A stretch of DNA of 64,000 nucleotides from Pseudomonadales bacterium (GTDB taxonomy: Bacteria; Pseudomonadota; Gammaproteobacteria; Pseudomonadales; CAWVSB01): contig JBALVY010000001.1 in assembly GCA_036960375.1 (NCBI GenBank), forward strand, positions 576,563-640,562, read 5' to 3'. Below, piece by piece: positions 9,219 through 32,792 of this stretch; within the stretch, counting starts at the first letter, position 1; the number at the start of each line of letters is the position of its first letter. The translations under genes were made by a program, and so were the position numbers. The notes beneath the pieces were generated by a model. That model had not been told where the DNA came from, searched no databases, and saw nothing but the letters and a program-made list of their open reading frames with translations.

Positions 9219-9281
9219 TCCGGAAAAAATCGTTGATCTATATGAATCAATCCCATTAAGCAACCAAGAGGGAAAATCACA

Positions 9282-10415: not shown

Positions 10416-10416
10416 C

Positions 10417-10740
10417 ATGTCTGACACAGAAACAAAAGTAAAACTCGCTCGGGTAGCCCGAGGCAAACGCCCCGCGTATCTGGATGACAGGGCGATCGAT
10501 AACCTCTATGCCATTGTGGTCACCATGATGCAGGAAAATGTGGTGTTGCGGGACCGCTTAGATACACTGGAACTGCTGCTTGAGCGGCAGGGTGTTGTGT
10601 TACAGCAGCAAATAGAAACGTTCGTGCCAGACAAAGAGGCAGCCGACTCTCGCGAGCAGCGCAACAGGTCCTATATCGAGAAGTTGTTTCGCTGCCTGCA
10701 GGATGACCGCCAGCAGTTTGACGACAAGGTACAGGCATAA
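10417..10740 (+). CDS. Small predicted alpha-helical protein S2, paralog of S1
   Basis: 107 aa from ATG 10417 (MSDTETKVKLARV...), 1 nt after the MT2 stop (TAA c ATG). The track ORF 10375..10740 is an upstream extension into MT2. Confidence 0.6.
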   Translation: MSDTETKVKLARVARGKRPAYLDDRAIDNLYAIVVTMMQENVVLRDRLDTLELLLERQGVVLQQQIETFVPDKEAADSREQRNRSYIEKLFRCLQDDRQQFDDKVQA

Positions 10741-14669: not shown

Positions 14670-16079
14670 ATGACTGAGCCCGTGGTAGCGACAGCGCCCG
14701 CCGCCAGCGCACCTGCCGAGCCCCGCGAGCTGCCCCTGTTGGTTTGCTTCGGCTGGGGTATCGGCTCTCTCGGTATGAACGTGTTCGGCTTTGCCAAACT
14801 GTTATTATTGCGATTCATGACCGATATTCTGGGAATCACGCCGGCGGTTGCCGGGCTGCTGATGTCTGGTTCGAAGCTCTACGATGCGGCCACTGACCCT
14901 GTTATGGGCATTATCAGTGACCGGACCTCGACCCGCTGGGGCAGGCGCCGCCCCTACCTGTTGCTCGGCGCGATATTATGTGGTCTGAGCTTTGTCTTTC
15001 TGTTCAATGTGCCGGTATTTGAACGGCCGGGGTTCACTGCCGCGGTGATCGGCTTCGCCCTCATTCTCTACTCAACCGCCTATACGGTGTTTAATGTACC
15101 CTACATGGCCATGCCGGCGGAAATGACCGATAACTACCATGAACGCTCCTTTCTCATCACTTTCCGCGTTTATGGCATTGCCTTCGGCCAGGTCATCGGT
15201 GGGTTTGTCGGCCCCCTGATTATTGCCTATTATGGCGGCGGTTATTACGGCCATAGCATGATGGCCTGGGCCATCGGCGCAGTTGTATTGGTGGCCCTGC
15301 TGACCTGCTTCGCCACCACCGGCCGGGCCAAATTCACGCAACGCGATGAAACTGTCCAGCGCGGCTGGCGTGAACAGTGGCGCACCGCGAGATCCAATAA
15401 GCCGTTTGTCATTCTTCTCATCAGCAAGCTGGCCACCCTGACCGGTACCAGCATCATGTTTGTGTCCCTATCTTATTTTGTAACGCTGATACTCGAGGTC
15501 AGCTATACCTGGTTGGGGTATTTCGCCCTTAGCATTACTATCGGCATGATACTGTCGCAGCCTGTCTGGCTGAAGCTTAGTCGCCGCTATGGCAAGAGAA
15601 TATGTTTTATCAGTGCCTCAATCCTGTTCGCCCTGGTCAGCCTGACGTGGTTGGCGAGTTCCAACGGTGAGGCCGCCTTTATTTCCATTAGCCGCAGTGT
15701 GGTGCTAGGTCTGGCATCCGGCGGTATCCTGCTGATGGGTCAGTCCATGTTGCCTGATACCATCGAGTTGGATAACCGGCGTACCGGGCTGCGTCGGGAG
15801 GGTATCTTTTCTGGACTTTACACCACGGTAGAGAAGCTCGGCTCGGCTTTTGGCGCGGGCTTCGCTGGCTTGACCCTCAGTTTTGCCGGCTACATTGCTT
15901 CCACCGAGAGCGAAACGGTGGTCCAGCCGGCCAGTGCTATTACGGGTATCTATATCTGTCTGGCAGTATTGCCCGCGGTCACCGCGTTGCTCAGCGCGAT
16001 TGCCATGATTTGGTACGATCTGTCGGAAGAAAAGCTTAAGAGTACAACGCTCGTAGTGGAGGAGACGCCGCCGGTATAA
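14670..16079 (+). CDS. MFS transporter, glycoside-pentoside-hexuronide (GPH) family
   Basis: 469 aa with about 12 TM segments. GPH signature DPVMGIISDRTSTRWGRRRPYLLLG. Confidence 0.85.
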   Translation: MTEPVVATAPAASAPAEPRELPLLVCFGWGIGSLGMNVFGFAKLLLLRFMTDILGITPAVAGLLMSGSKLYDAATDPVMGIISDRTSTRWGRRRPYLLLGAILCGLSFVFLFNVPVFERPGFTAAVIGFALILYSTAYTVFNVPYMAMPAEMTDNYHERSFLITFRVYGIAFGQVIGGFVGPLIIAYYGGGYYGHSMMAWAIGAVVLVALLTCFATTGRAKFTQRDETVQRGWREQWRTARSNKPFVILLISKLATLTGTSIMFVSLSYFVTLILEVSYTWLGYFALSITIGMILSQPVWLKLSRRYGKRICFISASILFALVSLTWLASSNGEAAFISISRSVVLGLASGGILLMGQSMLPDTIELDNRRTGLRREGIFSGLYTTVEKLGSAFGAGFAGLTLSFAGYIASTESETVVQPASAITGIYICLAVLPAVTALLSAIAMIWYDLSEEKLKSTTLVVEETPPV

Positions 16080-16155: not shown

Positions 16156-16962
16156 TTAGTTGATGGCCTGGTCTGTATCGGAATACTGGTTGCGGGTGGT
16201 GGTGCGCTTCGCATACTGCTCGCCGATCTCATCGGCAGTAGAGCGCAGCTCCGGGATGAACCGTTCAAGGGCTGTTTCCAGTGACTCGATATAGAGCGAG
16301 GAATAGCGGGTTGTCAGGCAGGCAAAGGCGTGTTTTTTTTCAAATATTGGAATCGATATCGCCGTCATGTTCTCGTCCGATACCTGCGTATCATAGCCTC
16401 GGCTACGTATTTCAGAGAGTTTTTTGCGCCACTGCGCAGGGTCTCTTACCACCTCGTCTCGCGGGCTCGCGCTGGTTTTCGAGATCAAGTCCACAAATGT
16501 ATTGCGATCTTTGTCCGAGCAAAAGGCGAGAAATGTCCTGCCCGATGCGCTTCCGGCCATCGATGTACACCAGCCGGTGGGTATTCTGTAGTTCGCTAGG
16601 CGACTGTGATAATCGGTGGCGGCGCGTACCATCATATTGAGGCCGCTGGGGACAGTTAGGTTGACTGGCCAGATAAGCTTCCGGCCCAGTTGCTCGATTT
16701 TTGGCCTTACGATACTGGCGATCCACAGTTCATCGATGTAGCCGTCACTGAGCCCCCGTACCTTGAGAGTGAGCCAGTAGGCGCCACTGAGCTCATCCCG
16801 TAGAACATAGTCCTCGGCACGGAGTGTCTCCAGCATTCGGTGTGCTGTGCCACGCGACAGCGAACACCGCTTTGCCACCTGGTTGGAGGTAAGGCCATTA
16901 TGCCGGTTGAGCAGCTCCAGTACGGCAAGCCCCCGTTCGAGTGACTGAACTGTTTTTGTCAT
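16156..16962 (-). CDS. IclR-family transcriptional regulator
   Basis: 268 aa. N-terminal wHTH (SLERGLAVLELL...GLTSNQVAKRCSLSRGTAHRMLETL) followed by an IclR effector domain. Confidence 0.9.
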   Translation of the reverse strand: MTKTVQSLERGLAVLELLNRHNGLTSNQVAKRCSLSRGTAHRMLETLRAEDYVLRDELSGAYWLTLKVRGLSDGYIDELWIASIVRPKIEQLGRKLIWPVNLTVPSGLNMMVRAATDYHSRLANYRIPTGWCTSMAGSASGRTFLAFCSDKDRNTFVDLISKTSASPRDEVVRDPAQWRKKLSEIRSRGYDTQVSDENMTAISIPIFEKKHAFACLTTRYSSLYIESLETALERFIPELRSTADEIGEQYAKRTTTRNQYSDTDQAIN

Positions 16963-17070: not shown

Positions 17071-17898
17071 TCAGGCCGCGGGCTTCGCCGGTGGATTGTT
17101 GATCAGGGCAATTATTGCTTGGCTCCAGCGTTCTGCTTCATCCCAAATGATCTGCGAGGTGCCACCTTCGATCTCTGTGTACTGGAATGTCGGTTTTATC
17201 CGGCTGGCCCGCTCGGCAAGGTGATGAATGATGTCACCCGTATTAGAGAGTATGGTAGTAGGGCAGATAACGCGTGTCAGCGCATCGCCGAGGTCGTAGG
17301 AAAAAGAAGCCTGATGTCCGTACCATTCACTGTCTCCGGCAATCATCGCGCACAGAGTAGACATGTGGGTGGCGGCCAGCGAAGCGGTATTGCCCGTTTT
17401 GCCGTGGCTGACCTTCCAGCGGGCCATAAAATGCGACCCGTCTTCCCGTGGAGACTGGTCTAGTCGCGGTCGGGCTTGACGTTCGCTGCGCTCTTGGGCG
17501 GTATATACCGGTGGTGAGTGCAATATCAGATGCCGTACCTGTTCGGGGTGGTTGGCCGCCACTGCGCCCGCCACAGCTGCGCCTGTGTGGTGACCCACTA
17601 GCGCTGCTGGTTCGTGGCACAATGCACTGATCGCCACGGCGATGGCAGCGGCGTATTCATCCACGCTGGGTGGCGCTAGTGGAAGGTCGGACATACCGTA
17701 GCCAGGCGTATCCAGAGCGATCACCCTGAATCCGGCGGCGGCCAGCAAGGGTAGGGCGTGCTCGTATTGTACCGATGACTGAGAGGTCTGGTGCAGTAGG
17801 ACCAGAGGCGCACCGCTACCGGCTTCGCGGTAGTGAATCTGGCCGTAGGGTCCGTCGACATAACCTTTGCGGGTCGGTGCAAGATCGATAGCGTTCAT
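17071..17898 (-). CDS. Alpha/beta-hydrolase-fold protein, epoxide-hydrolase/dehalogenase-like but with a non-canonical active site
   Basis: 275 aa from ATG 17898 (MNAIDLAPTRKGYVDGPYGQIHYREAG). LVLLHQTSQSS occupies the place of the HG-x-P motif. LVGHHTGAAV occupies the place of the GHD-x-G nucleophile elbow. The track start at 18072 overlaps the divergent TonB receptor promoter region. Confidence 0.8.
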   Translation of the reverse strand: MNAIDLAPTRKGYVDGPYGQIHYREAGSGAPLVLLHQTSQSSVQYEHALPLLAAAGFRVIALDTPGYGMSDLPLAPPSVDEYAAAIAVAISALCHEPAALVGHHTGAAVAGAVAANHPEQVRHLILHSPPVYTAQERSERQARPRLDQSPREDGSHFMARWKVSHGKTGNTASLAATHMSTLCAMIAGDSEWYGHQASFSYDLGDALTRVICPTTILSNTGDIIHHLAERASRIKPTFQYTEIEGGTSQIIWDEAERWSQAIIALINNPPAKPAA

Positions 17899-18078
17899 AG
17901 TGTTTACCCGATAATGGATGGTTGAGGAGGCAACAAAAACATAAAGATAAACACATTTTGCGAGTACACCAACATGCCCGCGATGTGGGCTGCTTTTAAT
18001 CGCAAATTTATTGGAGAATACTCGCACTTGAAACGTGATCCACCAATTCTTGGCGCGCAGCATAGGAAACATATACTA

Positions 18079-20709
18079 ATGATAAAATTCAATAAGTTAA
18101 GTAAAGCAGTCGCTATAGCCTCCTTACCCTTTCTTGCAGCAGGGCCGTCGATGGTCATGGCTCAGCAGGCGCCTGAATCGACAGAAGCAGGTCAGCTCGA
18201 AGAAATTACCGTGAGTGCACGTCGGCGAACAGAGAACCTGCAGGACGTGCCTATGTCGGTTGAGGCCTTCAATGAGAGCGCTATCGAGAGCCTGAACGTC
18301 TATAAGTTCAGCGACCTGGCCAGCCAGGTACCCAACCTGACGTTTGTCAGAGGCGAAAGTGGGCGTCTTAATACCCCGATTATTCGCGGTATGGCTCTGA
18401 TCGACTCTCGTGGTTTCGATAACAACGTCGGTGTCTTTATCGACGGAGTGTTTGTATCAGGACGGGCGGCACAGAATATCGGCTTGGTCGATCTCCAGCG
18501 CGTAGAGGTCGTCAAGGGACCTCAGAGCGCACTTTATGGGCGCAACACTTTTGCCGGCGCGGTGAATTTCGTGACTAAAGATCCTTCAGATACCTTCGAG
18601 GGCAATGTCGAGGCGACTATTGGTGAAGACAATCTGACACGGGTACAAGCTGCGATTTCCGGTCCTATAATTGAGGATCGCCTCTCCGGCAGGCTAGCCC
18701 TGAGTTATATGGACGATGAGGGTACTTACAAGAACATCGGGCCACAAGACAAGAATGGCGGTATAGGCGGCGCTAAGAGCGAGACCGTGATGGGAACCTT
18801 GCTATTTACGCCCAATGATTCTACCCGAATTTTCCTCGATGCCTATTACTCAGATGAAGACGTTGACGGCCGTGCGCTTGAAATCGTCGACAATAACTGC
18901 GGCGAAATCGTGCCGACCTTCACCAGCCTAACGTATGATATCGGTGTTCCGTACTACGCCTGTGGTGAAACGCCCAACTACAGCGGCGAGATGGTCGATC
19001 AGTCACCGGGGGCTTATTCCTCTAAAGGTGATACTTACCGGGGCGACCTGCGTATGGATTTCGAAATCGGCGACTATACCCTGCACTCCATCACGGCCTA
19101 TACCAAGAACCAGAGCAACGGCTTTGCCGACCTGGACCGCAGTCAGGTAGGTGGTGCCCACTATGGCTATGCGAAGCGGTCAGATTACGAGGCTCGCCCC
19201 TCCTATTTGCCTCCAGTATTATTTCCGGACGCACCCTATATTCCTGGGTGGGTGGAGGTAACGGACGCAGACTTCAATACATTCATTGGCTCTCAGGGTC
19301 TGGACCAAAAGTATTGGTCGCAGGAACTGCGACTCGACTCCGCCTCCGACCAGCGCTTGCGCTGGAGTGCCGGCCTGTACTACTTCCATTCCGAGAACGA
19401 TCAGTCATCGGACCTCGCTATCGATGTTAGCTCGGCCGTAGACGCCACAGGCCTTTCACCCGATGAGCTGGTATTCATGACTGTAGATCCAGCCGGTGGT
19501 CCGGGGCCCTACCCCTGGTTAGGCCCAGCAAACCCGCCGGGACGTCTTGCTCTGCCCCACCCCCTCCTGGGGCAACAGTACGAGGTTGATACCGACCTTT
19601 GGTCGGATGGCGTCAGGGGTCCGCAGCAACTGACCATTTCCACGGAAACCGTGGACCAGTATTCGATATTTGGTTCTCTTGAATACGACTTTACCGACAA
19701 GCTTACCGGAACCGTCGAGCTGCGCTACACGGAAGAGACCCGTTCACTAGAGGACATTAAGGACGATTTCTTCTTCACAGTGCCTCCGGGCGAGAGTAAC
19801 TACAACGAGGTGAGCTTCGAATTCTGGGATCCGCGCTTTACCCTGCGTTATGCGATGAACGACGACATCATGATCTACGGTTCCGTGGCCAAGGGCACCC
19901 GCTCTGGCGGCGTCAACGGCAACATTCCCGAGGCAGACCCCGATATTCTGACCTACGACCCTGAGACTAACTGGACCTATGAATTAGGCATTAAGAACTC
20001 CTGGCTGGATAATCGTTTGCAGCTTAATGCGGCGATCTTCTACGTGGACTGGGAGGACGCCCAGTTCCGCCAGCGCCTGACAGACAGCACCGGTGCATTC
20101 CTCACGGCAACCAGTAATTCTACCGGTCTGACCAGCAAGGGCTTTGAGATCAGTATCGTGGCTCAGCCTACCGAGCATTGGAATATCTCCGGTGGCTATG
20201 GTTATGCTGACGTCACCTTTGATGACGGCACACTCTACTCCGGTGGTGCTGCACTATGTCGGCTGCAACCAGCAGACAACAGTGACTATCCCGTGCTGCC
20301 TATCAACTGTGTGCTTGATCCTGCCGGTTCTGGTGACTCCTTCCCGGATATGTCAGGTCTACAGCCCAGACGTTCCAGCGACACCACAGCCAACTTTGCC
20401 ACGACGTACACCCGACCGTTGGGTGACAGCCTCGACTGGTTTGCCCAGGCGGATGCTTCCTACCGATCTAAACAGTACATGGACGAAATCAATGTGACCT
20501 ACGTACCCGCACGCAGCATTGCCAATATGAGCCTGGGTATCAATGCCGAGTCCTGGGGCGTTACCCTCTGGGTGAAGAATATGTTTGAAGAAGACGCGCC
20601 TGAGTTTGCCCAGGTATTTCAGTCGGACCTCAACTCATTCCTCCCGGTGACCACCATCGTTGGTATTGAGCGACGTCGCATTGGTATCACTGCTCGCTAC
20701 CGCTTCTAA
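18079..20709 (+). CDS. TonB-dependent outer-membrane receptor
   Basis: 876 aa from ATG 18079. Signal peptide MIKFNKLSKAVAIASLPFLAAGPSMVMAQQ, then LEEITVSARRR and a plug domain. Beta-barrel with C-terminal ...ITARYRF. Confidence 0.9.
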   Translation: MIKFNKLSKAVAIASLPFLAAGPSMVMAQQAPESTEAGQLEEITVSARRRTENLQDVPMSVEAFNESAIESLNVYKFSDLASQVPNLTFVRGESGRLNTPIIRGMALIDSRGFDNNVGVFIDGVFVSGRAAQNIGLVDLQRVEVVKGPQSALYGRNTFAGAVNFVTKDPSDTFEGNVEATIGEDNLTRVQAAISGPIIEDRLSGRLALSYMDDEGTYKNIGPQDKNGGIGGAKSETVMGTLLFTPNDSTRIFLDAYYSDEDVDGRALEIVDNNCGEIVPTFTSLTYDIGVPYYACGETPNYSGEMVDQSPGAYSSKGDTYRGDLRMDFEIGDYTLHSITAYTKNQSNGFADLDRSQVGGAHYGYAKRSDYEARPSYLPPVLFPDAPYIPGWVEVTDADFNTFIGSQGLDQKYWSQELRLDSASDQRLRWSAGLYYFHSENDQSSDLAIDVSSAVDATGLSPDELVFMTVDPAGGPGPYPWLGPANPPGRLALPHPLLGQQYEVDTDLWSDGVRGPQQLTISTETVDQYSIFGSLEYDFTDKLTGTVELRYTEETRSLEDIKDDFFFTVPPGESNYNEVSFEFWDPRFTLRYAMNDDIMIYGSVAKGTRSGGVNGNIPEADPDILTYDPETNWTYELGIKNSWLDNRLQLNAAIFYVDWEDAQFRQRLTDSTGAFLTATSNSTGLTSKGFEISIVAQPTEHWNISGGYGYADVTFDDGTLYSGGAALCRLQPADNSDYPVLPINCVLDPAGSGDSFPDMSGLQPRRSSDTTANFATTYTRPLGDSLDWFAQADASYRSKQYMDEINVTYVPARSIANMSLGINAESWGVTLWVKNMFEEDAPEFAQVFQSDLNSFLPVTTIVGIERRRIGITARYRF

Positions 20710-20726
20710 GTACAGGAGATATAAAA

Positions 20727-21545
20727 ATGACCAAGCTTTTGAATATTCGTTGCCTATACGCTTTGTGTTTGGCCAGTCTGCTGTCTCTGTCGCTGCCGGC
20801 GTTCAGCGCCAACCCGGAGCCGACTTCGGCTGCGGCGGCTCAGGGTGAAATTCTGGTGGTCGGTGCGTCCGGTCGCTCGGGGGTGTACATCATTAAGGCA
20901 CTCGAGCAGCAAGCGCGTGCTTTTCGGCCAATGACCAGCAATATCGAGCGGGCCAAGGGAAAGGTACCGGGCGATTACAATTGGGTGCAGGCCGATGTGC
21001 GTGACATGGCGACTTTGCAGGCTGCTATGGACGGAGTCACTTATGTGATTTCTGTCCTGGGTGCCACCAAGTTTGAAGGCCCAGACGGGCCTGAATTTGT
21101 GGACTGGCAAGGGACCAGAAATATAGTCGATGCGGCGAAAAAGGCCGGGGTGAAGCATATTGTGATCGTTTCTGCGGCGGGAGTATCGCAACCCAATAAC
21201 GCGATGAACAAGTACGGCAACGTAATGGTGTGGAAATTCAAGGGTGAGAACTACCTGCGAGCCGGCGGTATCCCTTACACCATCATTAGACCCGGTGGCC
21301 TCGAGAGCGAGGACAGCACGGGCAAGGGAATCGCCATGATGCAAGGTGATACGCTGCCTAATCACGGAGGCTTCAGTCGTGCCGACCTGGCCTCCATGTT
21401 GCTTGCTGCGGTGGGCAATCCCGACGCCTACCAGAAAACCTTTGAGCCAATTTACGAGGATGAGGCGGCTGCAGATGCTTGGCGCACCGAGTTTGGAGCG
21501 CTACTGACCGATGAGCAACTCAAGGCCAGCGCAGGCAATGAGTAG
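20727..21545 (+). CDS. Exported NAD(P)-binding Rossmann-fold protein (atypical SDR / NmrA-like)
   Basis: 272 aa. Sec-type signal MTKLLNIRCLYALCLASLLSLSLPAFS-AN, then ILVVGASGRSGVYIIKAL (GxxGxxG). Paralog of 27333..28190. Confidence 0.8.
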   Translation: MTKLLNIRCLYALCLASLLSLSLPAFSANPEPTSAAAAQGEILVVGASGRSGVYIIKALEQQARAFRPMTSNIERAKGKVPGDYNWVQADVRDMATLQAAMDGVTYVISVLGATKFEGPDGPEFVDWQGTRNIVDAAKKAGVKHIVIVSAAGVSQPNNAMNKYGNVMVWKFKGENYLRAGGIPYTIIRPGGLESEDSTGKGIAMMQGDTLPNHGGFSRADLASMLLAAVGNPDAYQKTFEPIYEDEAAADAWRTEFGALLTDEQLKASAGNE

Positions 21546-22230
21546 CGACAGCAATGATACGCTGAAGCGACGTCAGGCTCTGTCAATGGCGGCGGCCAGC
21601 ATTGCTGGCGCTGCACTGTTTCGCACTGGCATGGTATCTTCCCAGCCGGCGAGCGAGCCTTCGCGTCCCACCCCCGGAATGACTTCCAAGCTGAGCCCGG
21701 AAATTGAGGCGGCGAAGAAAAACGCCTTCATCATGATCCCCTACGGCATGTTTGTACTGGCGGTTACCGACGGCGAAAATATTTACGCTGGTGCTGTTAA
21801 CTGGGTGATGCAGAGCGCCTATGCTGAACCACTCTTCACCATGGGAGTGCGCCGCCCCGGCGGCTTTGGTTTCCCTTACAGTGACGAGGTCTACAAGACC
21901 CTGGTCAAAACAGGCAAGTTCAGTTTGTCGTTTCTCGGTGAAGACCAAACAAATATGGCCAGAGCGTTCATGTCAGCCGATACCGTGATCGATGGCAACA
22001 AGATCAACGGCTATGAATTCCACACTGCCATGACCGGCGCGCCTATCATCAATGAGGCACCAGCCTGGTTTGAGGCCGAGGTCAAGGATGAGGTGACGCC
22101 GGGTGACCATTCACTCTTTATTTGCTCTGTCATCAACGCAGGCAATACCACTGAGCAGCCATTGCTGATGGATCGCGACGCGACCCGTCGCCCGAAGAAC
22201 TGGCTCACCGGTGGTGCGGCCACTAAGTAG
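21538..22230 (+). CDS. Flavin-reductase-like (FMN-binding split-barrel) protein with a Tat-type signal
   Basis: 230 aa from ATG 21538, overlapping the upstream stop. N-terminus MSSDSNDTLKRRQALSMAAASIAGAALF carries a twin-Arg plus hydrophobic region. Core IPYGMFVLAVTDGENIYAGAVNWVMQSAYAEPLFTMGV resembles the flavin reductase domain. Confidence 0.7.
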   Translation: MSSDSNDTLKRRQALSMAAASIAGAALFRTGMVSSQPASEPSRPTPGMTSKLSPEIEAAKKNAFIMIPYGMFVLAVTDGENIYAGAVNWVMQSAYAEPLFTMGVRRPGGFGFPYSDEVYKTLVKTGKFSLSFLGEDQTNMARAFMSADTVIDGNKINGYEFHTAMTGAPIINEAPAWFEAEVKDEVTPGDHSLFICSVINAGNTTEQPLLMDRDATRRPKNWLTGGAATK

Positions 22231-22304: not shown

Positions 22305-23099
22305 ATGAGGAAGGCCTACGTCGATATCCCTCAGGGGCAGCTTCATTACCTGACAGAGGGCACCGGTATTCCGCTGGTACTTTGTCACCAGTCCCCCAAC
22401 TGTTCTCGCATGTTCACCGCTGCAATTCCTTTGCTTGCTGAGGCGGGCTTCAGGGTGCTGGCATTTGATACTCCCGGGCATGGGGAGTCCAGTCCGCTGC
22501 AGCACGAACCTTCGATTCCAGATTATGCGCGGGCGTTGCTGTCGGGCCTCGATGCGCTGGAGCTAGAACATTTTCATCTGCTGGGCCACCATACCGGCGC
22601 AGCGATAGCCGCAGAGATGGCCGTTAGCGCGGCGGGGCGGGTCGACTCGCTGATACTGAATGGCCCGCCATTGTTTTCACCGGATACACGCGCCCAGCGC
22701 CGCTTGAAGGATCCCCTGCGCATTGTGCCGACAGAGGGCGGGCAGCACTTGTTGACCTTGTGGGAGTTGCGCAAGCGGGTGACGCCTGGTTGGTCTGACC
22801 TGAGGGTGATGCAGCGTGCCGTTGTCGATCTGCTGCGCTGCGGCAACCGGGTTCATCAGGGACACGCGGCGGTATACGACTACGATCTTGAACAGGCGCT
22901 GATGCAGCTGAACGTTCCCACGCTGATTTTGACCAACACCGGGGAAGACCTGTACCAGCATTCCCTTGCGACTTTTGCCCTGCGCCCCGACGCCTTTAAG
23001 CTCTCAGAACTACCCGGTGGTACCCACGACATTGTCGATGAACAGCCGGTGGCCTGGTCACATGCAGTGGCCTCGTTCGTTGCGCAGGTGGTTGGCTGA
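22305..23099 (+). CDS. Alpha/beta-hydrolase-fold protein, paralog of 17071..17898
   Basis: 264 aa. It shows the same deviations as its paralog: LVLCHQSPNCS and LLGHHTGAAIA. A C-terminal GGTHD is present. Confidence 0.8.
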   Translation: MRKAYVDIPQGQLHYLTEGTGIPLVLCHQSPNCSRMFTAAIPLLAEAGFRVLAFDTPGHGESSPLQHEPSIPDYARALLSGLDALELEHFHLLGHHTGAAIAAEMAVSAAGRVDSLILNGPPLFSPDTRAQRRLKDPLRIVPTEGGQHLLTLWELRKRVTPGWSDLRVMQRAVVDLLRCGNRVHQGHAAVYDYDLEQALMQLNVPTLILTNTGEDLYQHSLATFALRPDAFKLSELPGGTHDIVDEQPVAWSHAVASFVAQVVG

Positions 23100-23199: not shown

Positions 23200-25470
23200 A
23201 TGAATGCCCCTCTCAAAGGTATCAAAGTCCTCAATTGCGGCACCGCCGGTGTGGGTCCCTGGGCAGCCACACTGCTGGGTTACCTTGGGGCAGAAGTCAT
23301 CAAGATTGAAAGGCCTAGCGGCGAAATGACCCGTCGAGCGTTTCCGCAACGCAACGGTGTAAGCACCGCCTTTCTCGCCCTCAATATCAACCAGACCCCA
23401 CTGTACCTGGATATGAAAGATCCAGATAACCGAGCGCAGTTCGAGCAGTTGGTCGCGGGAGCGGACGTCCTTATTGAGAACTATCGACCCGGCGTCGCCG
23501 AGCGTATCGGCATGGGTTACGAGTATGTCAGCCAAATAAATCCGCGATTAGTGATGGCCAGCAGCCCGGGCTGGGGGCACAGCGGCCCCATGCGCGATAC
23601 CGGCGCGGTTGACCCGCACCTACAGGCCTTCAGTGGTTTTGCCGGTCTTAATGGAGCCGAGGGTGACGACCCCGAGATGTTGCGTTATACCCATATCGAC
23701 CCGAACGGCTCGGTACACTTGGCCGCTCTCGTTATGCTTGGCCTGCTGCAGCGGCAGCGTACCGGCAAGGGAAGCTATGTGCGCAGCTCCCACCTTGCTA
23801 TGGCACTGTTTATGCAATCGACGCGTATTGCCGAGACTCTGACGACAGGCGAGCCGGTTCCCCGGCTCGGTAGCGCCTGCACATCCAGTGTACCCAATCA
23901 GTGTTTTCAGGCCCGTGACGGAGCCTGGTTTACTGTGGCGGTAGAGTCGCCTGAGCAGTGGCAGGGCTTTTGTGCGGCGATAGAGCGGTCGGAACTCGCA
24001 GAGGACGAACGATTTTGTACCAACGCGGCTCGGGTACAGAACCGCCGAGCACTGGTAGAGGACCTGCAGCGCTGGTTCGCGGGCCAGCCGGAGCGCTGGT
24101 GGATTACCCGGCTCGAAGCGTATGCCGTGCCCCACAGCCGGTTGCTTGAATTTGACGACCTGCGCTATCACCAGCAGATTGTGGAGAACGGCTATCTGGT
24201 CGAAGTGGAATCGGTCGCCGGCCCATTGACGCTGGGGGGGCTGCCCTGGCGATTCAGTCGCACGCCCGCCTCAATTGTCGCAGCGAAACCCGCCGGTGAT
24301 GCGTCTGGCATGGTCGCATTCACTGCCGATGGCGAAGCGCAGCCGGTCAAGGGCAATGCGGCTTCACCGGAGCTCCCACCTCTGGACGGGCTGAGGGTGA
24401 TCGACGCCTCCCAGGGCTACGCCGGTCCGCTGGTGGCCTTGCTGCTGGCGGAGGCCGGTGCCGAAGTGACGAAGCTGGAACCGTCCGCAGGAGACTGGAC
24501 TCGTACTCTACTGCCGACGACGGGCGAGGGGCGCAGTGCCGCGTTTGATGCGATGAACCGAAACAAGCTCTGCCTGTCGGTCGATAAGCTAAGTTCGGCG
24601 GACACTGCCCGGCTGGTGGAACAGGCCGATATTGTGATTAGCGATGATTCAGACCTGTTGGCCGCACTTGGGCTCGATACCGCGGTTCTAGCGGAGCAAA
24701 ATCCCGAAATGATTCACTTTGAATTAAGTGGCTTTGGCGAGCGTGGTCCAATGGCCGGCCACCCGGCGAGTGAGCTGGGAATACAGGGTATGACGGGTTA
24801 TCTGAGTGACCTTGGGCAGCCCGGCGGCGAGCCGGTGCGGGTGGGCGCGGATATTACCGGCACCTGTACTGCGGCTTTGTCATTTCTGGGCGTAACGGCA
24901 GCGCTTTACGAGCGAGCGGAGTCCGGCAAAGGGCAGTCGATTGCCGCCAGTATGCTGGGGGCCATGATGTGTATGCGCACCCTGCGCTGGGCCAACCACT
25001 GCCGCCCCGACGAATGGAAAGGTGGCGACTGCAATGGCAAAACTGATCAGCCCTGGCGTGGCTACCGGACCCGTGACGGTGTCATTTGGCCCACCATGGT
25101 GCCGGTGCGCGACGACCAACAGATTTTAGAAATATATCGGCAGTTGGGTATGTTTGATGAGGTATGCGACAAGGATATTTTCATGCAGCACGGGCGCGAC
25201 ACTGTCGGCCTGGGATTCAACGCTCAAGCGGTCAAGCCGGTCTGGGACAAGGCCCTTGGTCGACTGCCGACAGAACAGGTACTGCGGGTCTTCAATGAGC
25301 ATCGCGGTATCGCCGTGGAGTTTTCCGAGTTGCATCAACTTGTTAACCATCCCCAGGTGCAGGCACTGGATATTCTAGAGGGTGATGGTGCCGGCCGCTA
25401 TGTGCGTGCGCCATGGCATACGAGCTGGCAGCGCCCTCCACTTAAACAACCAATGGGAAATGACCAATGA
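23200..25470 (+). CDS. Double-domain class III CoA-transferase, paralog of 2722..5028
   Basis: 756 aa. LKGIKVLNCGTAGVGPWAATLLGYLGAEVIKIERPSGE, and a second half LDGLRVIDASQGYAGPLVALLLAEAGAEVTKLEPSAGD. HIDPNGS and VGADITGTCT are retained. By eye well over half of positions are identical to the first copy. Confidence 0.85.
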   Translation: MNAPLKGIKVLNCGTAGVGPWAATLLGYLGAEVIKIERPSGEMTRRAFPQRNGVSTAFLALNINQTPLYLDMKDPDNRAQFEQLVAGADVLIENYRPGVAERIGMGYEYVSQINPRLVMASSPGWGHSGPMRDTGAVDPHLQAFSGFAGLNGAEGDDPEMLRYTHIDPNGSVHLAALVMLGLLQRQRTGKGSYVRSSHLAMALFMQSTRIAETLTTGEPVPRLGSACTSSVPNQCFQARDGAWFTVAVESPEQWQGFCAAIERSELAEDERFCTNAARVQNRRALVEDLQRWFAGQPERWWITRLEAYAVPHSRLLEFDDLRYHQQIVENGYLVEVESVAGPLTLGGLPWRFSRTPASIVAAKPAGDASGMVAFTADGEAQPVKGNAASPELPPLDGLRVIDASQGYAGPLVALLLAEAGAEVTKLEPSAGDWTRTLLPTTGEGRSAAFDAMNRNKLCLSVDKLSSADTARLVEQADIVISDDSDLLAALGLDTAVLAEQNPEMIHFELSGFGERGPMAGHPASELGIQGMTGYLSDLGQPGGEPVRVGADITGTCTAALSFLGVTAALYERAESGKGQSIAASMLGAMMCMRTLRWANHCRPDEWKGGDCNGKTDQPWRGYRTRDGVIWPTMVPVRDDQQILEIYRQLGMFDEVCDKDIFMQHGRDTVGLGFNAQAVKPVWDKALGRLPTEQVLRVFNEHRGIAVEFSELHQLVNHPQVQALDILEGDGAGRYVRAPWHTSWQRPPLKQPMGNDQ

Positions 25471-26468
25471 CAAGTGCAGACAACTCTACGCAAGGCGCCC
25501 CCGGGACATTTGATGCAATCAGCTTTCGCGACGCCCTGGGGCAGTTTGCCACCGGCGTAACGATAATAACCGCGGTCGATGCAGACGGCACGCCGGTGGG
25601 TGTTACCGCCAACAGTTTCAATTCTGCTTCCCTGGACCCGCCTCTGGTTCTGTGGAGCCTTGGGCGACGCTCGGGCACCCTTAGCGCGTTCACCCAGGCG
25701 GAATATTTTGCTGTGCACATTCTTTCGGCGGATCAGATCGAACTTTCCAATCGGTTTGCTGCCCCCCGCAGCGACAAATTCGAGGGAATTGAAACAACAG
25801 AAGGTCTTGGCGGCGTGCCCTTGCTCGATGGTTGTGCCGCTCGTTTCGAATGCAAAACCGCCTACCAGTACGAGGGTGGCGACCATATTATTTTTGTCGG
25901 CGAGGTGCAGCGCTTTGAAAAGGCAGATACTCCCACGCTGCTGTATCACCAGGGCAAGTATGCCTTGTCGCATGCGCAGCAGGCGGTAGCACCGGGCACG
26001 CCGGGTGGAGAGGGCGTCGATCCGCCCGGAGGGTTTGTCGACGACTATCTCGCCTACCTCTTAATTAATGCCTCCCGAAGCTTCCTGACCCGCTTCAAGG
26101 ACTGCATTCTCTCTTCCGGCCTGGACATCATTGGCTGGAGAACACTGGCGCATCTTACTGATCAGGACGGCAGGATGGGCAAAACCATGTTAAGCAAGGG
26201 AGTGGCAGAGGATGCCGAGAGCATGCTCGAAGCGCATCGCCGGCTCGAGTCGGAAGGCCTTATCCGCCGCGACGTAGAGCCGCTGGACGAAGAACTTGCA
26301 AGGCCGATACACCTGACCGACCTCGGCAGGGAAACGGTGATCCCCATACTGGCCGCGGCTAAATCGCTTGAATCAGACGCCCTTGGTGGTCTGGAAACAG
26401 ATGACGAGATTCAGATTCTGAAAAATTCGTTGCGCCAGGTGGCGTCGCGTATGGCAGATGAGAAATAG
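25467..26468 (+). CDS. Flavin reductase (HpaC-like) fused to a C-terminal MarR-type winged-helix domain
   Basis: 333 aa. The N-terminal ~165 aa (FRDALGQFATGVTIITAVDADGTPVGVTANSFNSASLDPPLVLWSL...GDHIIFVGEV) form a flavin reductase domain. After a Pro/Gly linker comes a MarR-like segment (IIGWRTLAHLTDQDGRMGKTMLSKGVAEDAESMLEAHRRLESEGLIRRD). The start overlaps the CoA-transferase stop (ATGA). Confidence 0.8.
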   Translation: MTSADNSTQGAPGTFDAISFRDALGQFATGVTIITAVDADGTPVGVTANSFNSASLDPPLVLWSLGRRSGTLSAFTQAEYFAVHILSADQIELSNRFAAPRSDKFEGIETTEGLGGVPLLDGCAARFECKTAYQYEGGDHIIFVGEVQRFEKADTPTLLYHQGKYALSHAQQAVAPGTPGGEGVDPPGGFVDDYLAYLLINASRSFLTRFKDCILSSGLDIIGWRTLAHLTDQDGRMGKTMLSKGVAEDAESMLEAHRRLESEGLIRRDVEPLDEELARPIHLTDLGRETVIPILAAAKSLESDALGGLETDDEIQILKNSLRQVASRMADEK

Positions 26469-26518: not shown

Positions 26519-27316
26519 CTATGGTTTACTGAATTTCAACACGGCGCGGGAAGTTTTACCGCGATAGGCGGGCATCATTGCCATGCCCTTTAGGTCGTCC
26601 TCGGTATTGAGTAATACGTCACTCTCAGATTCGAACACAAAGCCCGCTGCCAAAAAATCTCGCTTGATCAGTTCCGGATCGATCCGGTGTAGCTTCGGTA
26701 CCACGGCGGGGTCGGCGTCGGCTTGTGCTATATGGTCTATTACGCCGACTGTTCCGCCTGCACGCGTCGCTGCAAATACCTGTGCCAGCATGGCTGGGCG
26801 ATCTACTTTTTCCCAGCCGCGAAACCCATCAATGTAATAAATGTCATGGTAGGCAAGGCTGAACAGCACCACATCGAACGCGTCTGTCGGCAGTATTAAT
26901 GCGTTATTGGGGGCTATCAATACCTCGACGTTGTTGAGGCGATCATCTCCATAGCGGATGGCGCGCTCTTCGGCGGTCATCCCGGCGTACACGGTATTGT
27001 TGTGTGCGACCACCCGGCCCTTTTCACCTACTGTGTAGGACAGCATCTCAGTGTAGTAACCACCGCCCGAGTACATATCCAGTACGCTCTGGCCGGGTTG
27101 AATAGAGAAGAACTGCAAGATATCTGCAGGTTTGCGCTGAGTATCGCGCACCGTGTCCTTTTCCGGACGATTCGGATTCGTGACAGCGGCGGTGATGATC
27201 TCAGCTTGTGATGTGGCGGGCGGCACGTCGGCTGTAGCGGCGCAGGAAATTAACGTGGCGCAGGCTGCCAGCTGCACTATGTGATTTTTGAGGGCGAAAC
27301 GGCGAAGGTTTAACAT
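26519..27316 (-). CDS. Exported (lipoprotein-signal) class I methyltransferase-fold protein
   Basis: 265 aa. N-terminus MLNLRRFALKNHIVQLAACATLISCAAT contains lipobox-like LAAC and LISC. VLDMYSGGGYYTE resembles methyltransferase motif I. Confidence 0.75.
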   Translation of the reverse strand: MLNLRRFALKNHIVQLAACATLISCAATADVPPATSQAEIITAAVTNPNRPEKDTVRDTQRKPADILQFFSIQPGQSVLDMYSGGGYYTEMLSYTVGEKGRVVAHNNTVYAGMTAEERAIRYGDDRLNNVEVLIAPNNALILPTDAFDVVLFSLAYHDIYYIDGFRGWEKVDRPAMLAQVFAATRAGGTVGVIDHIAQADADPAVVPKLHRIDPELIKRDFLAAGFVFESESDVLLNTEDDLKGMAMMPAYRGKTSRAVLKFSKP

Positions 27317-27332: not shown

Positions 27333-28190
27333 TTAGTTCAGGAACAGGTTCCAAAGGTTTAATCGGTTGGGGTCATAAGCAGTAAAGGTTTTGCCTATCG
27401 TGTCGTCGTCCGCCAGTGATGCTACCACTAGCTGCGCTAGGTCCTTGCGTCCCATGTAACTGAAGGACTCGGCGTCTTCCGTAAGTCGGGCTGTGCCCGT
27501 TGTTGGCCCTTTTGATAGGCCGCCGGGACGAATAATAGTGTAGTCGAGGCCGCTTAGCCTAAGGTGGTCCTCTGCTTTCTCTTTCAACGGAATCACTTCC
27601 TGATGCCCGCGGCGCGCCATCGGCGGCAGGCCTTCCCAGGACTTGCCAGGTCCGATGACGGTCACCAACAACATGCGCTCTACTCCCGCATTCTTGGCTG
27701 TGTCAATGATGTTGCGATTGCCAATGAAGTCGGGACGCTTATTAGGGTCCATTTTGGTCTGACCCTCGATCAGCGAGCTGATGAAATTCTTGCGGGTGGG
27801 GAGGTCCTTGGAGGACGTTCCCAAGGTTGAGATAACCGCATCGAACTTAGCTGAATTCATGATCGCAGCTAACTCGTCCTGCTTCATAGCGTCGCCCACG
27901 GCTTTGCGGATACCCAGTTCATCCAGAGCGGCAGTATTGGAAGTCGGGCGCACCAGCGCAGTCACTTCAACGCCCTGGGACTGAAGAACCCGCACAATTT
28001 CCAGGCCGGTACCTCTAGTACCGCCGACAACCAGCACCCTGCGTGTTTCAAGCGGGGTCGGGCTAAGGCTTTGGAACGAATCAGGTGTGTGGTAGATACC
28101 GCTCATCATAGCTACGTATGCCGCGGCAATCAGGAATAGGCCGAGCGATAGGAATAGGATGGTTTTACCTAGAATTTTTAACAGCCACAT
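27333..28190 (-). CDS. Membrane-anchored NAD(P)-binding Rossmann-fold protein (NmrA-like), paralog of 20727..21545
   Basis: 285 aa. N-terminal TM helix ILGKTILFLSLGLFLIAAAYVAMM, then VLVVGGTRGTGLEIVRVL. Confidence 0.75.
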   Translation of the reverse strand: MWLLKILGKTILFLSLGLFLIAAAYVAMMSGIYHTPDSFQSLSPTPLETRRVLVVGGTRGTGLEIVRVLQSQGVEVTALVRPTSNTAALDELGIRKAVGDAMKQDELAAIMNSAKFDAVISTLGTSSKDLPTRKNFISSLIEGQTKMDPNKRPDFIGNRNIIDTAKNAGVERMLLVTVIGPGKSWEGLPPMARRGHQEVIPLKEKAEDHLRLSGLDYTIIRPGGLSKGPTTGTARLTEDAESFSYMGRKDLAQLVVASLADDDTIGKTFTAYDPNRLNLWNLFLN

Positions 28191-29210: not shown

Positions 29211-30125
29211 ATGGATTATCCCTATGTACCAATCTGTGACAGAGGGCCGCTGTCATTTCCTGATGGCAAACGGGTTGCGCTTATTATGACGTTCAATCTA
29301 GAGACCTGGGACCTGGTAAAGGAAACCGATCAACCTTATTACGCCGGTGGCCCGGCGATTCTGCCCAATACGTTGCCGGGGAACATTCCCGATTATCCAA
29401 ACTACTCATGGCGGGAGTACGGCCAGCGGGTGGGCATCTGGCGCCTGTACGAGCTTTTCGACAGCCTGGGTGTGGCCGCCAGTTGCACCACCAACGCGGT
29501 GACGTTTGAGCGCCGCAATCCGATGGTGAAGGCCTGTCTCGATCGCGGCTGGGAACTGCTTGCACATAATTATGAGCAGGGTGAATTACTAACAGACTAC
29601 GCTCATGACCCGGAGCGGGAGCGGGCAGTGATCGACAAAACGATCGATATCTATACCCGGCATGTGGGGCGCAAGCCTTTGGGGTGGTTGTCGTCATCCT
29701 TGCGGGGCACACTCAATACCGCTGCGATCCTCGCAGAGCGCGGCTTTCTGTTTTACTGCGACATTATGAATGATGACCAGCCATACATGATCGATACCGA
29801 GGCAGGCCAGATTGTTTCCATTCCCTACTCAAATGAAATCAACGATTTCACCATTCTCACCCGAAGTAATCATACTACCGACCAGTACCGAGACATTCTG
29901 ATTGAGGAGCTCGATGTGCTCTACCAGGAAGGTGCGACCAGTGGCCGTATTATGAATGTGGGTTTGCACCCGCATGTGAGCGGGCGCGCCTATCGCGTGA
30001 GAGCCGTTCGAGAGTTTATTGAGCATGCCAAGAGCCTGGACGGGGTCTGGTGGACGACGCGCGAAGAGCTGGCGCGCTGGTATCTTGAAAATAGACAAGG
30101 TCATATGGATGCCTCCAATGCATAA
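29211..30125 (+). CDS. Polysaccharide-deacetylase-fold hydrolase, PuuE (allantoinase)-like
   Basis: 304 aa from ATG 29211, 1 nt after the upstream stop. It is collinear with my recollection of PuuE: YGQRVGIWRLYELF, RKPLGWL, GFLFYCDIMNDDQPYM, SIPYSNEINDF, VGLHPHVSGRAYRVRAVREFIEHAK. Confidence 0.8.
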   Translation: MDYPYVPICDRGPLSFPDGKRVALIMTFNLETWDLVKETDQPYYAGGPAILPNTLPGNIPDYPNYSWREYGQRVGIWRLYELFDSLGVAASCTTNAVTFERRNPMVKACLDRGWELLAHNYEQGELLTDYAHDPERERAVIDKTIDIYTRHVGRKPLGWLSSSLRGTLNTAAILAERGFLFYCDIMNDDQPYMIDTEAGQIVSIPYSNEINDFTILTRSNHTTDQYRDILIEELDVLYQEGATSGRIMNVGLHPHVSGRAYRVRAVREFIEHAKSLDGVWWTTREELARWYLENRQGHMDASNA

Positions 30126-30753
30126 AAGTACCCGAAGGAATTTTTTGGTCTTCGTGGGTATCATGTTGCTGGGGCTGATACCCAGCGAGATCTACTTGTT
30201 GTCAGCGGGGTTCAGTGACGACAGTCTGAATATGGTGCTGCGGCAAACGGCCCGCTCCAGTCTCTTGTTCTTTTTGCTGGCCTTTGTTGCCACGCCATTG
30301 CGTCAACTCGTGGATCTTCCTGTGGCTCGCTGGTTAGTGCGTCACCGGCGTTCGCTGGGCCTCGCGTTTGGCGGTATGCAGAGCGCGCACCTCCTGTTAA
30401 TCGCCTGTCGGTACGCGGCGATTCCCGGCGTAGATTTAAATCCGATAGTGGGGACCATTGGTGGCACAGCCTATCTGCTGATGTACCTGATGGTTGTTAC
30501 TTCCTTCAACGCGCCGCGGCGGTTTATAAGCGCAGTGGCTTGGCAGCGCCTGCACAAGGTGGGGCTGTACTATAACGGATTTCTCTTTTTGGCCATGCTA
30601 CCACCGGGCGCAGATGAGCAGTTGCTGAACCCTGGCCGTGCTGTACTGATCGTACTGACGACCATCGCCGTGTTAGTCCGGGTGGCAGAGTTCGCGAGTC
30701 ACTGGCGTAAATCCAGAACGGCAAAGCAACGTGCGGTAGGCGAATCCTTGTGA
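30109..30753 (+). CDS. Ferric-reductase-like transmembrane protein (MsrQ/YedZ-like)
   Basis: About 214 aa with 5-6 TM segments. Conserved-looking His residues in RRSLGLAFGGMQSAHLLLI and AWQRLHKVGLYYNGF. The start is uncertain (ATG 30109 or 30118); both overlap the upstream gene end. Confidence 0.5.
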   Translation: MPPMHKSTRRNFLVFVGIMLLGLIPSEIYLLSAGFSDDSLNMVLRQTARSSLLFFLLAFVATPLRQLVDLPVARWLVRHRRSLGLAFGGMQSAHLLLIACRYAAIPGVDLNPIVGTIGGTAYLLMYLMVVTSFNAPRRFISAVAWQRLHKVGLYYNGFLFLAMLPPGADEQLLNPGRAVLIVLTTIAVLVRVAEFASHWRKSRTAKQRAVGESL

Positions 30754-32779: not shown

Positions 32780-32792
32780 GGAGAATTAACCA

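Follow-up and report, generated by a model that had tools for sequence, protein, structure and literature searches.

Two very probably exported proteins with Rossmann and flavin-reductase folds are encoded behind a TonB-dependent receptor in a Pseudomonadales catabolic cluster

We analysed a 64,000-nucleotide stretch of contig JBALVY010000001.1 from a Pseudomonadales bacterium (hereafter the window), in which a TonB-dependent receptor gene is directly followed by two genes, A and B. Gene A encodes a Rossmann protein of the NAD_binding_10/NmrA-like family and gene B a protein with the flavin reductase fold. Our analysis indicated that A is very probably exported through the general secretory (Sec) pathway and B very probably by twin-arginine translocation (Tat), and that the receptor-A-B triad is syntenic in at least five lineages including the window. 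In the textbook view, nicotinamide- and free-flavin-dependent reductases are cytoplasmic, and this locus is directly relevant to the question of how reductases of the Rossmann type can work in the periplasm. Our tentatively preferred reading, which we rate as a whole at somewhat short of an even chance, treats A and B as periplasmic redox partners that act on an imported compound. It also places the receptor, A and B nearest the promoter in an operon under IclR control, within a catabolic island that is horizontally mobile. The locus is a compact, conserved and genetically tractable case of an exported Rossmann protein translationally coupled to a Tat-exported flavin-reductase-fold protein. 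The pair lies beside a dedicated importer of the outer membrane, and membrane haem proteins that are candidate partners are encoded close by.

Genes were called from a six-frame list of open reading frames (ORFs) and domains were assigned from Pfam; coordinates are collected in Table 1. From its likely start codon the receptor has a normal signal peptide (MIKFNKLSKAVAIASLPFLAAGPSMVMA/QQ; slashes mark predicted cleavage sites) and a TonB-box-like LEEITVSA. Receptor orthologues were found in three of the homologous loci that we numbered L001 onward, namely L001 (66% identical), L010 (46%) and L019. The gap between the receptor and A is 17 nt, and an AGGAGA lies 7-8 nt 5' of A's ATG. The overlap of A and B depends on the start of B: it is 8 nt from ATG 21538, the choice of a preliminary description of this DNA, and 35 nt from ATG 21511, the start in NCBI record P0001. 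The gene layout given in that description (the 17-nt gap, and the 8-nt overlap from ATG 21538), the folds and the N-termini were all borne out. The terminator scan revealed no terminator-like site between the receptor, A and B; scores in the terminator and promoter scans of the locus were no higher than the shuffled expectation. Proteins identical to A and B are present in NCBI from a Pseudomonadales metagenome-assembled genome (MAG), labelled "SDR family oxidoreductase" (SDR, short-chain dehydrogenase/reductase) and "flavin reductase family protein".

Export was judged from the conservation of leader sequences within each family, for A in an alignment of 31 family members. The leader of A, MTKLLNIRCLYALCLASLLSLSLPAFS/AN, contains the basic residues K3 and R8, a 15-residue hydrophobic core (CLYALCLASLLSLSL), and A25-F26-S27 at positions -3 to -1 before A28, obeying the -3/-1 rule. 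It shows the features of a Sec type I signal, namely a basic n-region, a core of 10-15 residues and small residues at -3/-1. A leader of 28-61 aa precedes the invariant GxSGxxG in 29 of the 29 sampled bacterial homologues (34-82% identity); basic residues come first in these leaders and are followed by a core with a 12-residue Kyte-Doolittle maximum of 2.0-3.3. A lipobox Cys was found in at least 13 of the 29, and an RR motif in one. Plant (At5g02240-like) and Bacillus relatives have no leader and start directly at the Rossmann strand. Because the leader is conserved across diverged homologues but absent from cytoplasmic relatives, A very probably leaves the cytoplasm through Sec and is soluble in the periplasm, and many of its relatives are very probably lipoproteins. 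A mis-called start of A was considered and rejected: the next in-frame Met falls after GxxGxxG, so the leader cannot be removed with the motif kept.

The N-terminus of B, with the stretch DTLKRRQALSMAAASIAGAALF-R-TGMVSS/QP, contains the motif KRRQALS, with R11-R12 encoded at 21568-21573. The h-region is a 16-residue uncharged, Ala-rich stretch, and an Arg of the c-region directly follows its final AALF. Twin arginines and an Ala-rich uncharged stretch were found in 24 of the 25 long B homologues (48-71% identity); in the apparent exception, P0016, SRRAAMVV lies upstream of the called start. Conservation within the variable N-terminal 50 residues of the 25 sequences reaches 90% or more at R11, R12 and L15 and, besides these, only at the initiator Met. 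Kyte-Doolittle values of the h-regions in the B clade are 1.5-2.0, below those of the A family. Tat signals have consecutive arginines in an S/T-R-R-x-F-L-K-like motif of the n-region and an h-region of at least 12 residues; lower hydrophobicity and a basic "Sec-avoidance" residue in the c-region distinguish them from Sec signals (PMC7317946). Since the RR pair, the weaker h-region and the c-region Arg fit these criteria, the signal was assigned to the Tat type, and B is very probably a Tat substrate. Cytoplasmic relatives of about 160 aa, including 1WGB, have no N-terminal extension. The cleavage region in the window is tentatively V-S-S/Q, aligned with AQA/A, GSA/Q and AGA/Q in orthologues. 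Both candidate starts of B (21511 and 21538) retain the RR pair; a third, ATG 21586, was rejected, having no ribosome-binding site and cutting off the conserved RR. The preliminary description had named a downstream start that removes the signals as grounds for giving up its claim of export; none that keeps the domain was found in A or in B. The extracytoplasmic location it predicted for both proteins is very probable, the signals being conserved across diverged homologues and absent from cytoplasmic relatives.

The fold of A is well supported. A matched PF13460 NAD_binding_10 at 1.5e-33 (116.6 bits; cut-off 27.2) and NmrA at 2.8e-14, and a profile of its family matched the solved structure 1XQ6 at 1.5e-72. 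Its AlphaFold2 (AF2) model has a pLDDT of 90.6 and superposes on At5g02240 and BLVRB with TM-scores of 0.81-0.85. The top Foldseek matches were At5g02240 (1YBM/1XQ6), Bacillus 3E8X and BLVRB-NADP; ChuY, QOR2 and the NDUFA9 subunit of complex I were further structural matches. These comparisons place A, by descent, in an exported branch of the NAD_binding_10 proteins of At5g02240/BLVRB type. In the family alignment G46, A47, G49 and G52 of the glycine-rich motif GASGRSG are invariant, and D90, S149 and K170 vary hardly at all. Beta-2 ends (RPMTSN) without an acidic residue. The Arg-containing motif, the lack of an acidic residue after beta-2 and the conserved D90, S149 and K170 therefore point to an NADP-type site with a retained catalytic apparatus, and A would probably prefer NADP.

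B matched PF01613 Flavin_Reduct at 1.2e-22 (81.1 bits; cut-off 27). Its profile matched the solved structures 1WGB (5.3e-46) and Archaeoglobus fulgidus FeR, 1I0R (1.1e-19). The core of its AF2 model has a pLDDT above 90 and gave 1WGB in Foldseek at 4.5e-16, with StyB, SgcE6, BorF, PheA2, HpaC and the Archaeoglobus ferric reductase FeR as further matches. Exported and cytoplasmic members share IPYG, NWxxQ...P, TGAPI and GDH without variation; in B the invariant residues are I76/P77/Y78, N97/W98/Q101/P107, T175/G176/P178/I179, D199 and H200. By descent B is a divergent, exported and loop-remodelled branch of PF01613, and any NAD(P)H:flavin reductase activity is putative.

The exported B clade is very rare. 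A profile of exported B run against 1.84 billion cluster representatives returned one full-length cluster (387 bits; clusters are drawn at 50% identity) and two fragments; the next match, at 131 bits, was an ordinary protein of 159 aa. A pattern scan of 185,579 species-representative genomes found exported B at a single locus, and a word-indexed search yielded 28 long B homologues, every one of them metagenomic or from a MAG. Exported A proteins form a far broader clade. Six proteins from the library of 1.84 billion representatives were tried and rejected as Tat flavin reductases: the N-terminal extensions of P0180, P0195, P0232, P0287 and P0322 are not signals, and P0211 has RRDFLK without an h-region. 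Our literature searches for periplasmic or Tat flavin reductases and for signal-peptide NmrA proteins beside TonB receptors found nothing directly relevant, and no description of an exported PF01613 protein or of an A-B pairing was found in the literature searched.

Whether the triad is syntenic elsewhere was a check that the preliminary description had named, and it proved to be so, in the window, L001/L002, L010, L012 and L019. Compared with the B of the window, B is 71% identical in L001/L002 (a Tara Oceans contig), 61% in L010 and 62% in L012; L019 was reached through an A homologue that is 55% identical. The shared block runs, on the left, from an IclR-family gene (minus strand) and an alpha/beta hydrolase gene (minus strand) to the receptor, A, B and a further alpha/beta hydrolase gene. 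On the right it continues with a fused double CoA-transferase III gene and a C1-like flavin reductase gene, followed by genes for an exported methyltransferase-like protein (minus strand; not in all cases part of the block) and an anchored NAD_binding_10 protein (minus strand). Across lineages the receptor-A gaps are 14-35 nt and the A-B spacing is -8 to +19 nt, and the tight receptor-A-B spacing is repeated in L001, L010 and L019.

Elsewhere B has other neighbours, and no universal partner of B was found among the lineages, whose contexts differ. In a high-GC lineage B comes after a ferrochelatase gene and a VOC-family gene, and in L008/L009 the genes after it encode an NmrA-like protein with a Tat signal (beginning MLSRRRLLSRSVG; 31% identity with A) and a DUF1838 protein that also has one; in L008 these neighbours of B lie at 8878-10670. 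In L003-5 it is followed by a classical SDR of 345 aa, also with a Tat signal (beginning MPSRRRIIIGAG; 10798-11835 in L003). In L011 the distance from B to another TonB receptor is 2.7 kb. Tat-exported Rossmann proteins thus recur around B and, with A included, B is paired independently with three different exported Rossmann proteins, which argues for a functional partnership. A-like genes were also found in other settings. L015 (3653-7247) has the order DUF1838, cytochrome b561, A-like lipoprotein (47% identical to A) and MFS_2 (MFS, major facilitator superfamily), with the A-like gene overlapping the cytochrome b561 stop codon by 4 nt, and in L017 an A-like gene adjoins an MFS transporter gene. 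No DUF1838 or cytochrome b561 homologue was found in the window.

According to our preferred reading, the receptor would let into the periplasm a compound that porins cannot admit because of its size. Here it would be reduced or oxidised by B, exported folded and most likely with flavin, and by A, as an NADP-type Rossmann reductase. The MFS_2 transporter would then deliver the product to the hydrolases, CoA-transferases and two-component hydroxylase of the cytoplasm. The most speculative step concerns the electrons, which might reach B's flavin through a membrane haem protein (the MsrQ-like protein encoded at 30118-30753 in the window, cytochrome b561 elsewhere) and be passed by B to A or to the substrate.

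To our knowledge, the periplasm holds no free NAD(P)H. The Shewanella FAD exporter Bfe reportedly brings flavin cofactors to this compartment, and we know of no equivalent exporter for NAD(P). The same electron-donor puzzle has been stated for periplasmic CerR, and the electron source of experimentally periplasmic Rossmann reductases of this kind was left open (PMC11087976). A membrane electron conduit is suggested by the MsrQ-like gene, the last of our conserved cluster, and by a second, unrelated membrane haem protein, the cytochrome b561 whose gene is coupled to the A-like gene in L015. The MsrQ-like protein of the window scored 22.2 bits (1.6e-4) with PF01794, whose cut-off is 28, and 22.3 bits with NF003831 (MsrQ), whose cut-off is 130. 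Among this protein and its homologues, NF003831 was matched by 8 of 8 (best 1e-5) and PF01794 by 5 of 8 (best 6e-6). It has two invariant His residues, H91 and H146. A 54% identical orthologue is present in L001 and six further homologues in metagenomes, and NCBI lists the protein as hypothetical. A search of solved structures with it gave no matches, and the genes of the cluster that were scanned with Pfam include none that is MsrP-like. We tentatively treat it as a distant MsrQ relative. That electrons pass through such a haem protein to the flavin of B, and then to A or the substrate, seems doubtful, if conceivable. A previously unrecognised periplasmic relay running from a membrane haem-b protein through a Tat-exported flavoprotein to exported Rossmann reductases is, as a whole, improbable on present evidence. 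If true, the relay would be a further means of powering reductions in the periplasm, would offer a general explanation of how CerR and other "NAD(P)H-type" enzymes work without free NAD(P)H, and would mean that TonB-dependent nutrient uptake can include redox tailoring between the two membranes. On a conservative reading, the locus defines a very rare exported PF01613 clade and, among At5g02240-like proteins, a broad clade whose members are exported or lipoproteins, both clades being hidden by their annotation labels.

Several findings weigh against a redox pair. The leaders of A, of its anchored paralogue and of the methyltransferase-like protein are all of the Sec type and are conserved in orthologues, and because of this the three proteins could not carry cytoplasmic cofactors out. 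A would cross the membrane unfolded, which speaks against a nicotinamide cofactor bound beforehand; a simple "periplasmic NAD(P)H enzyme" model has its main weakness here, and NAD(P)H as the reductant is not established. B itself is altered. The exported clade has an 8-residue insertion, RRPGEFGFPYDD, and the loop KR--DSHLH of cytoplasmic relatives and 1WGB is changed to RRPGEFGFPYDDALY, with DD where the DSHLH loop has DS. The C-terminal YGG is lost and replaced by LLMDRDATRRPxxWL. The loop after beta-3, which is DSHLH in cytoplasmic relatives, we take to contact the flavin phosphate. Since this loop is remodelled and YGG is lost, flavin or NAD(P)H binding by B may be altered. That Tat export implies a pre-bound cofactor, as had been proposed, is likewise not established, given that Tat also carries cofactor-less proteins and that the DSHLH-aligned loop is remodelled. 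B occurs without an exported Rossmann neighbour in L006/L007, L011 and L014, so the partnership is not obligatory. The MsrQ-like assignment lies below all curated cut-offs, and the gene is 7.9 kb from A/B in a different transcription unit. The earlier proposal of periplasmic redox processing of an imported substrate is plausible and partly supported, localisation and synteny being well supported, but the cofactor, the reductant and the cargo's role as substrate are not established, the link to the cargo being operon structure.

The same Sec-type signals, by which A, its anchored paralogue and the methyltransferase-like protein would arrive without cofactors, suit an explanation in which A and B are periplasmic but cofactor-free ligand-binders, their dinucleotide and flavin pockets capturing the cargo and handing it over to MFS_2. 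NmrA-type proteins without catalytic activity exist, and A-like genes adjoin MFS transporter genes in L015 and L017. We regard this explanation as unlikely, since GxxGxxG, the Arg of GASGRSG, S149 and K170 of A are invariant or nearly so, GDH and NWxxQ/TGAPI of B are conserved with cytoplasmic flavin reductases, the use of Tat by B suggests folding and probably cofactor loading before export, and Rossmann partners in other lineages also use Tat. About equally unlikely is a general periplasmic reductase for quinones, flavins or oxidant detoxification that is co-transcribed with the receptor and does not act on its cargo. The nearest characterised relatives are indeed of broad specificity (BLVRB, known as "flavin reductase (NADPH)", QOR2, triphenylmethane reductase and FeR), and B is found in several unrelated contexts. 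The triad, however, is tightly coupled translationally within one catabolic cluster in five lineages, and so rare a clade is not what a housekeeping function predicts.

Less likely still is a periplasmic ferric-chelate reductase for iron uptake, in which the receptor would import an Fe(III) chelate to be reduced by the FeR-like B and the BLVRB-like A. The match of B to FeR (1I0R, 1.1e-19), the siderophore-receptor subfamily TIGR01783 as the receptor's best NCBIfam match, the other TonB receptor near B in L011 and the ferric-reductase-domain-like protein in the cluster all fit it. But the receptor scored 160.5 bits, under the TIGR01783 cut-off of 223.5; no Fur box was found in the divergent promoter (17850-18110), where the best match was 12/19; and no ABC iron importer is present. 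The regulator is of the IclR type, and the neighbours are hydrolases, CoA-transferases, acyl-CoA and aldehyde dehydrogenases and aromatic hydroxylases. That the signals are non-functional, with mis-assigned starts or with N-terminal anchors leaving the domains in the cytoplasm among NAD(P)H and free flavin, is very improbable. The two candidate start codons of B speak for it, but both keep RR, A's start has the strong AGGAGA ribosome-binding site, and no in-frame start of A keeps the Rossmann motif without the leader. Leaders are kept in character, though diverged in sequence, in 29 (A) and 24 (B) homologues and are absent from cytoplasmic relatives. Lipoboxes occur in many A homologues. Basic residues precede the core and acidic ones follow it, which by the positive-inside rule puts the domain outside. 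A haem or tetrapyrrole function, prompted by the ChuY and BLVRB relatives of A and by the ferrochelatase gene upstream of B in L006, L008 and L013, was set aside, as this link is confined to one lineage with a VOC-family gene in between and B clusters with flavin reductases and not with HugZ-type proteins.

Comparison with known systems showed a similarity in proposed function to glucose-fructose oxidoreductase (GFOR), MsrPQ and DdvT/DdvK, and placed the locus outside the GFOR and MsrP families. GFOR of Zymomonas mobilis is described as a periplasmic Rossmann oxidoreductase that is Tat-exported folded with NADP bound (Halbig et al. 1999, as cited in PMC7317946). The Tat-signal NmrA-like (L008) and SDR (L003) partners of B look GFOR-type, whereas A, from NAD_binding_10, has a signal of the Sec type, and the flavin-reductase-fold protein paired with it is a separate one, exported by Tat. 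The ceramide reductase CerR of Caulobacter crescentus is an atypical SDR, NDUFA9-like, with a conserved NADH site, and is experimentally periplasmic (PMC11087976). CerR resembles A, as predicted here, in being a Rossmann protein in the periplasm, and NDUFA9 chains are among A's structural matches. It differs in belonging to another subfamily, serving lipid biosynthesis and being peripherally bound to the inner membrane, and it is not reported to have a partner with the flavin-reductase fold or a TonB-receptor partner.

The cytoplasmic flavin reductase Fre can serve as a source for E. coli MsrQ, and the cluster in the window likewise has genes for a cytoplasmic flavin reductase and a distantly MsrQ-like protein. 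In the methionine sulfoxide reductase system MsrPQ, a Tat-exported periplasmic redox enzyme receives electrons across the inner membrane through the ferric-reductase-domain haem protein YedZ/MsrQ (PMC12525009). Our locus differs in having no MsrP-like molybdoenzyme and an MsrQ-like gene that is not adjacent, and the periplasmic partner proposed here is a flavoprotein. Among single proteins, At5g02240 (1XQ6/1YBM), BLVRB and ChuY are the nearest solved relatives of A and share GxxGxxG with Arg and an NADP-type pocket, but they are cytoplasmic or plant-cytosolic, have no leaders, and are at most 30% identical to A in structural alignments. The nearest relatives of B, 1WGB/1YOA of Thermus thermophilus, FeR and HpaC/StyB/PheA2, share the split barrel and IPYG, NWxxQ, TGAPI and GDH. 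They are cytoplasmic proteins of about 150-190 aa, whereas B adds a Tat signal of about 35 residues and a Pro-rich linker; the RRPGEFGFPYDD insertion and the replacement of YGG are peculiar to the B side. A precedent for joint uptake by a TonB receptor and an MFS transporter is DdvT/DdvK of Sphingobium sp. SYK-6, which import a lignin-derived dimer and are encoded inside an aromatic catabolic cluster (PMC6874591), but no periplasmic processing enzymes are described for them and the bacterial lineage is another.

Table 1. Features of the receptor-A-B locus and its surroundings in the window.
Feature	Position	Strand	Remarks
MFS_2 (GPH-type) inner-membrane transporter, candidate importer	14670-16079	+	Orthologues in L001 (81%) and L010 (79%)
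IclR-family regulator (PcaR/PobR-like)	16156-16962	-	Conserved in L001, L010, L019
Alpha/beta hydrolase, divergent from receptor operon	17071-17901	-	No signal peptide
TonB-dependent receptor (Plug and beta-barrel)	ORF 17974-20709; likely start ATG 18079	+	PF07715 4.3e-18; PF00593 4.3e-33
Gene A, 272 aa	20727-21545	+	PF13460 NAD_binding_10/NmrA-like; At5g02240/BLVRB-like atypical SDR
Sec-type signal peptide of A, 27 aa	20727-20807	+	Predicted cleavage AFS/AN
Gene B, 230 aa	21538-22230 (alternative start 21511, 239 aa)	+	PF01613 Flavin_Reduct; predicted Tat signal
Twin-arginine signal of B	21538-21642	+	RR, Ala-rich h-region, basic c-region residue
Alpha/beta hydrolase, cytoplasmic	22305-23099	+	
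Fused double CoA-transferase III, about 760 aa, cytoplasmic	23200-25470	+	
C1/HpaC-like flavin reductase with MarR-like tail, cytoplasmic	25467-26468	+	
S-adenosylmethionine (SAM)-methyltransferase-like protein, Sec-type signal	26519-27316	-	Weak PCMT/UbiE matches; signal conserved in L010, L012, L019
Second NAD_binding_10 protein, conserved N-terminal membrane anchor or uncleaved signal	27333-28190	-	30% identical to A
Distant MsrQ/YedZ-like polytopic membrane protein, 211 aa	30118-30753	+	Candidate transmembrane electron conduit

The genes around the triad fit a catabolic setting. The gene order from the cytoplasmic alpha/beta hydrolase to the C1-like flavin reductase downstream of B is kept in L001, L002, L010, L012 and L019. 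The cluster also encodes FAD-dependent aromatic hydroxylase-like proteins, a PhyH dioxygenase, an acyl-CoA dehydrogenase, two aldehyde dehydrogenases and an arylmalonate-decarboxylase-like protein. Judging from this gene content, it is most likely a catabolic island for a phenolic or other organic acid. The G+C content is 56.7% in positions 1-30753 of the window and 49.2% in 30754-64000, the drop falling at the end of the catabolic cluster, and CopA/CopB-like copper-resistance genes directly follow at 30842-33545. The G+C drop and the adjoining copper genes therefore suggest that the cluster may be a horizontally acquired island. The anchored NAD_binding_10 gene and the methyltransferase-like gene form a two-gene unit with a 16-nt gap. 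By the positive-inside rule the NAD_binding_10 domain is predicted to lie in the periplasm, and the methyltransferase-like protein is another "cytoplasmic-cofactor" fold predicted to be exported. These two exported proteins, the MsrQ-like candidate conduit and the phenolic-acid catabolic setting went unmentioned in the preliminary description.

Some further observations were made on these genes. The leader of the methyltransferase-like protein reads LRRFALK in the window, and the RR is absent in its orthologues. An HsaA/C2-like oxygenase component is encoded at 1303-2505 (minus strand), 23 kb from the C1-like reductase at 25467-26468 (plus strand), and the two look like halves of a two-component phenol hydroxylase. 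A second fused double family III CoA-transferase of about 760 aa lies at 2722-5028 (plus strand). A second TonB-dependent receptor, 27% identical to the first, is encoded at about 61663-63858 (minus strand) and adjoins an MFS_2-like gene at about 58833-60248 (minus strand). The window also contains two tandem pairs on the plus strand (7660-8028/8025-9218 and 9282-10415/10417-10740), each consisting of a class I methyltransferase of about 380-400 aa and a protein of about 110-120 aa without family assignment. The methyltransferase/small-protein pair recurs directly upstream of B in L003-5, and was also found upstream of the DUF1838, cytochrome b561 and A-like genes in L015.

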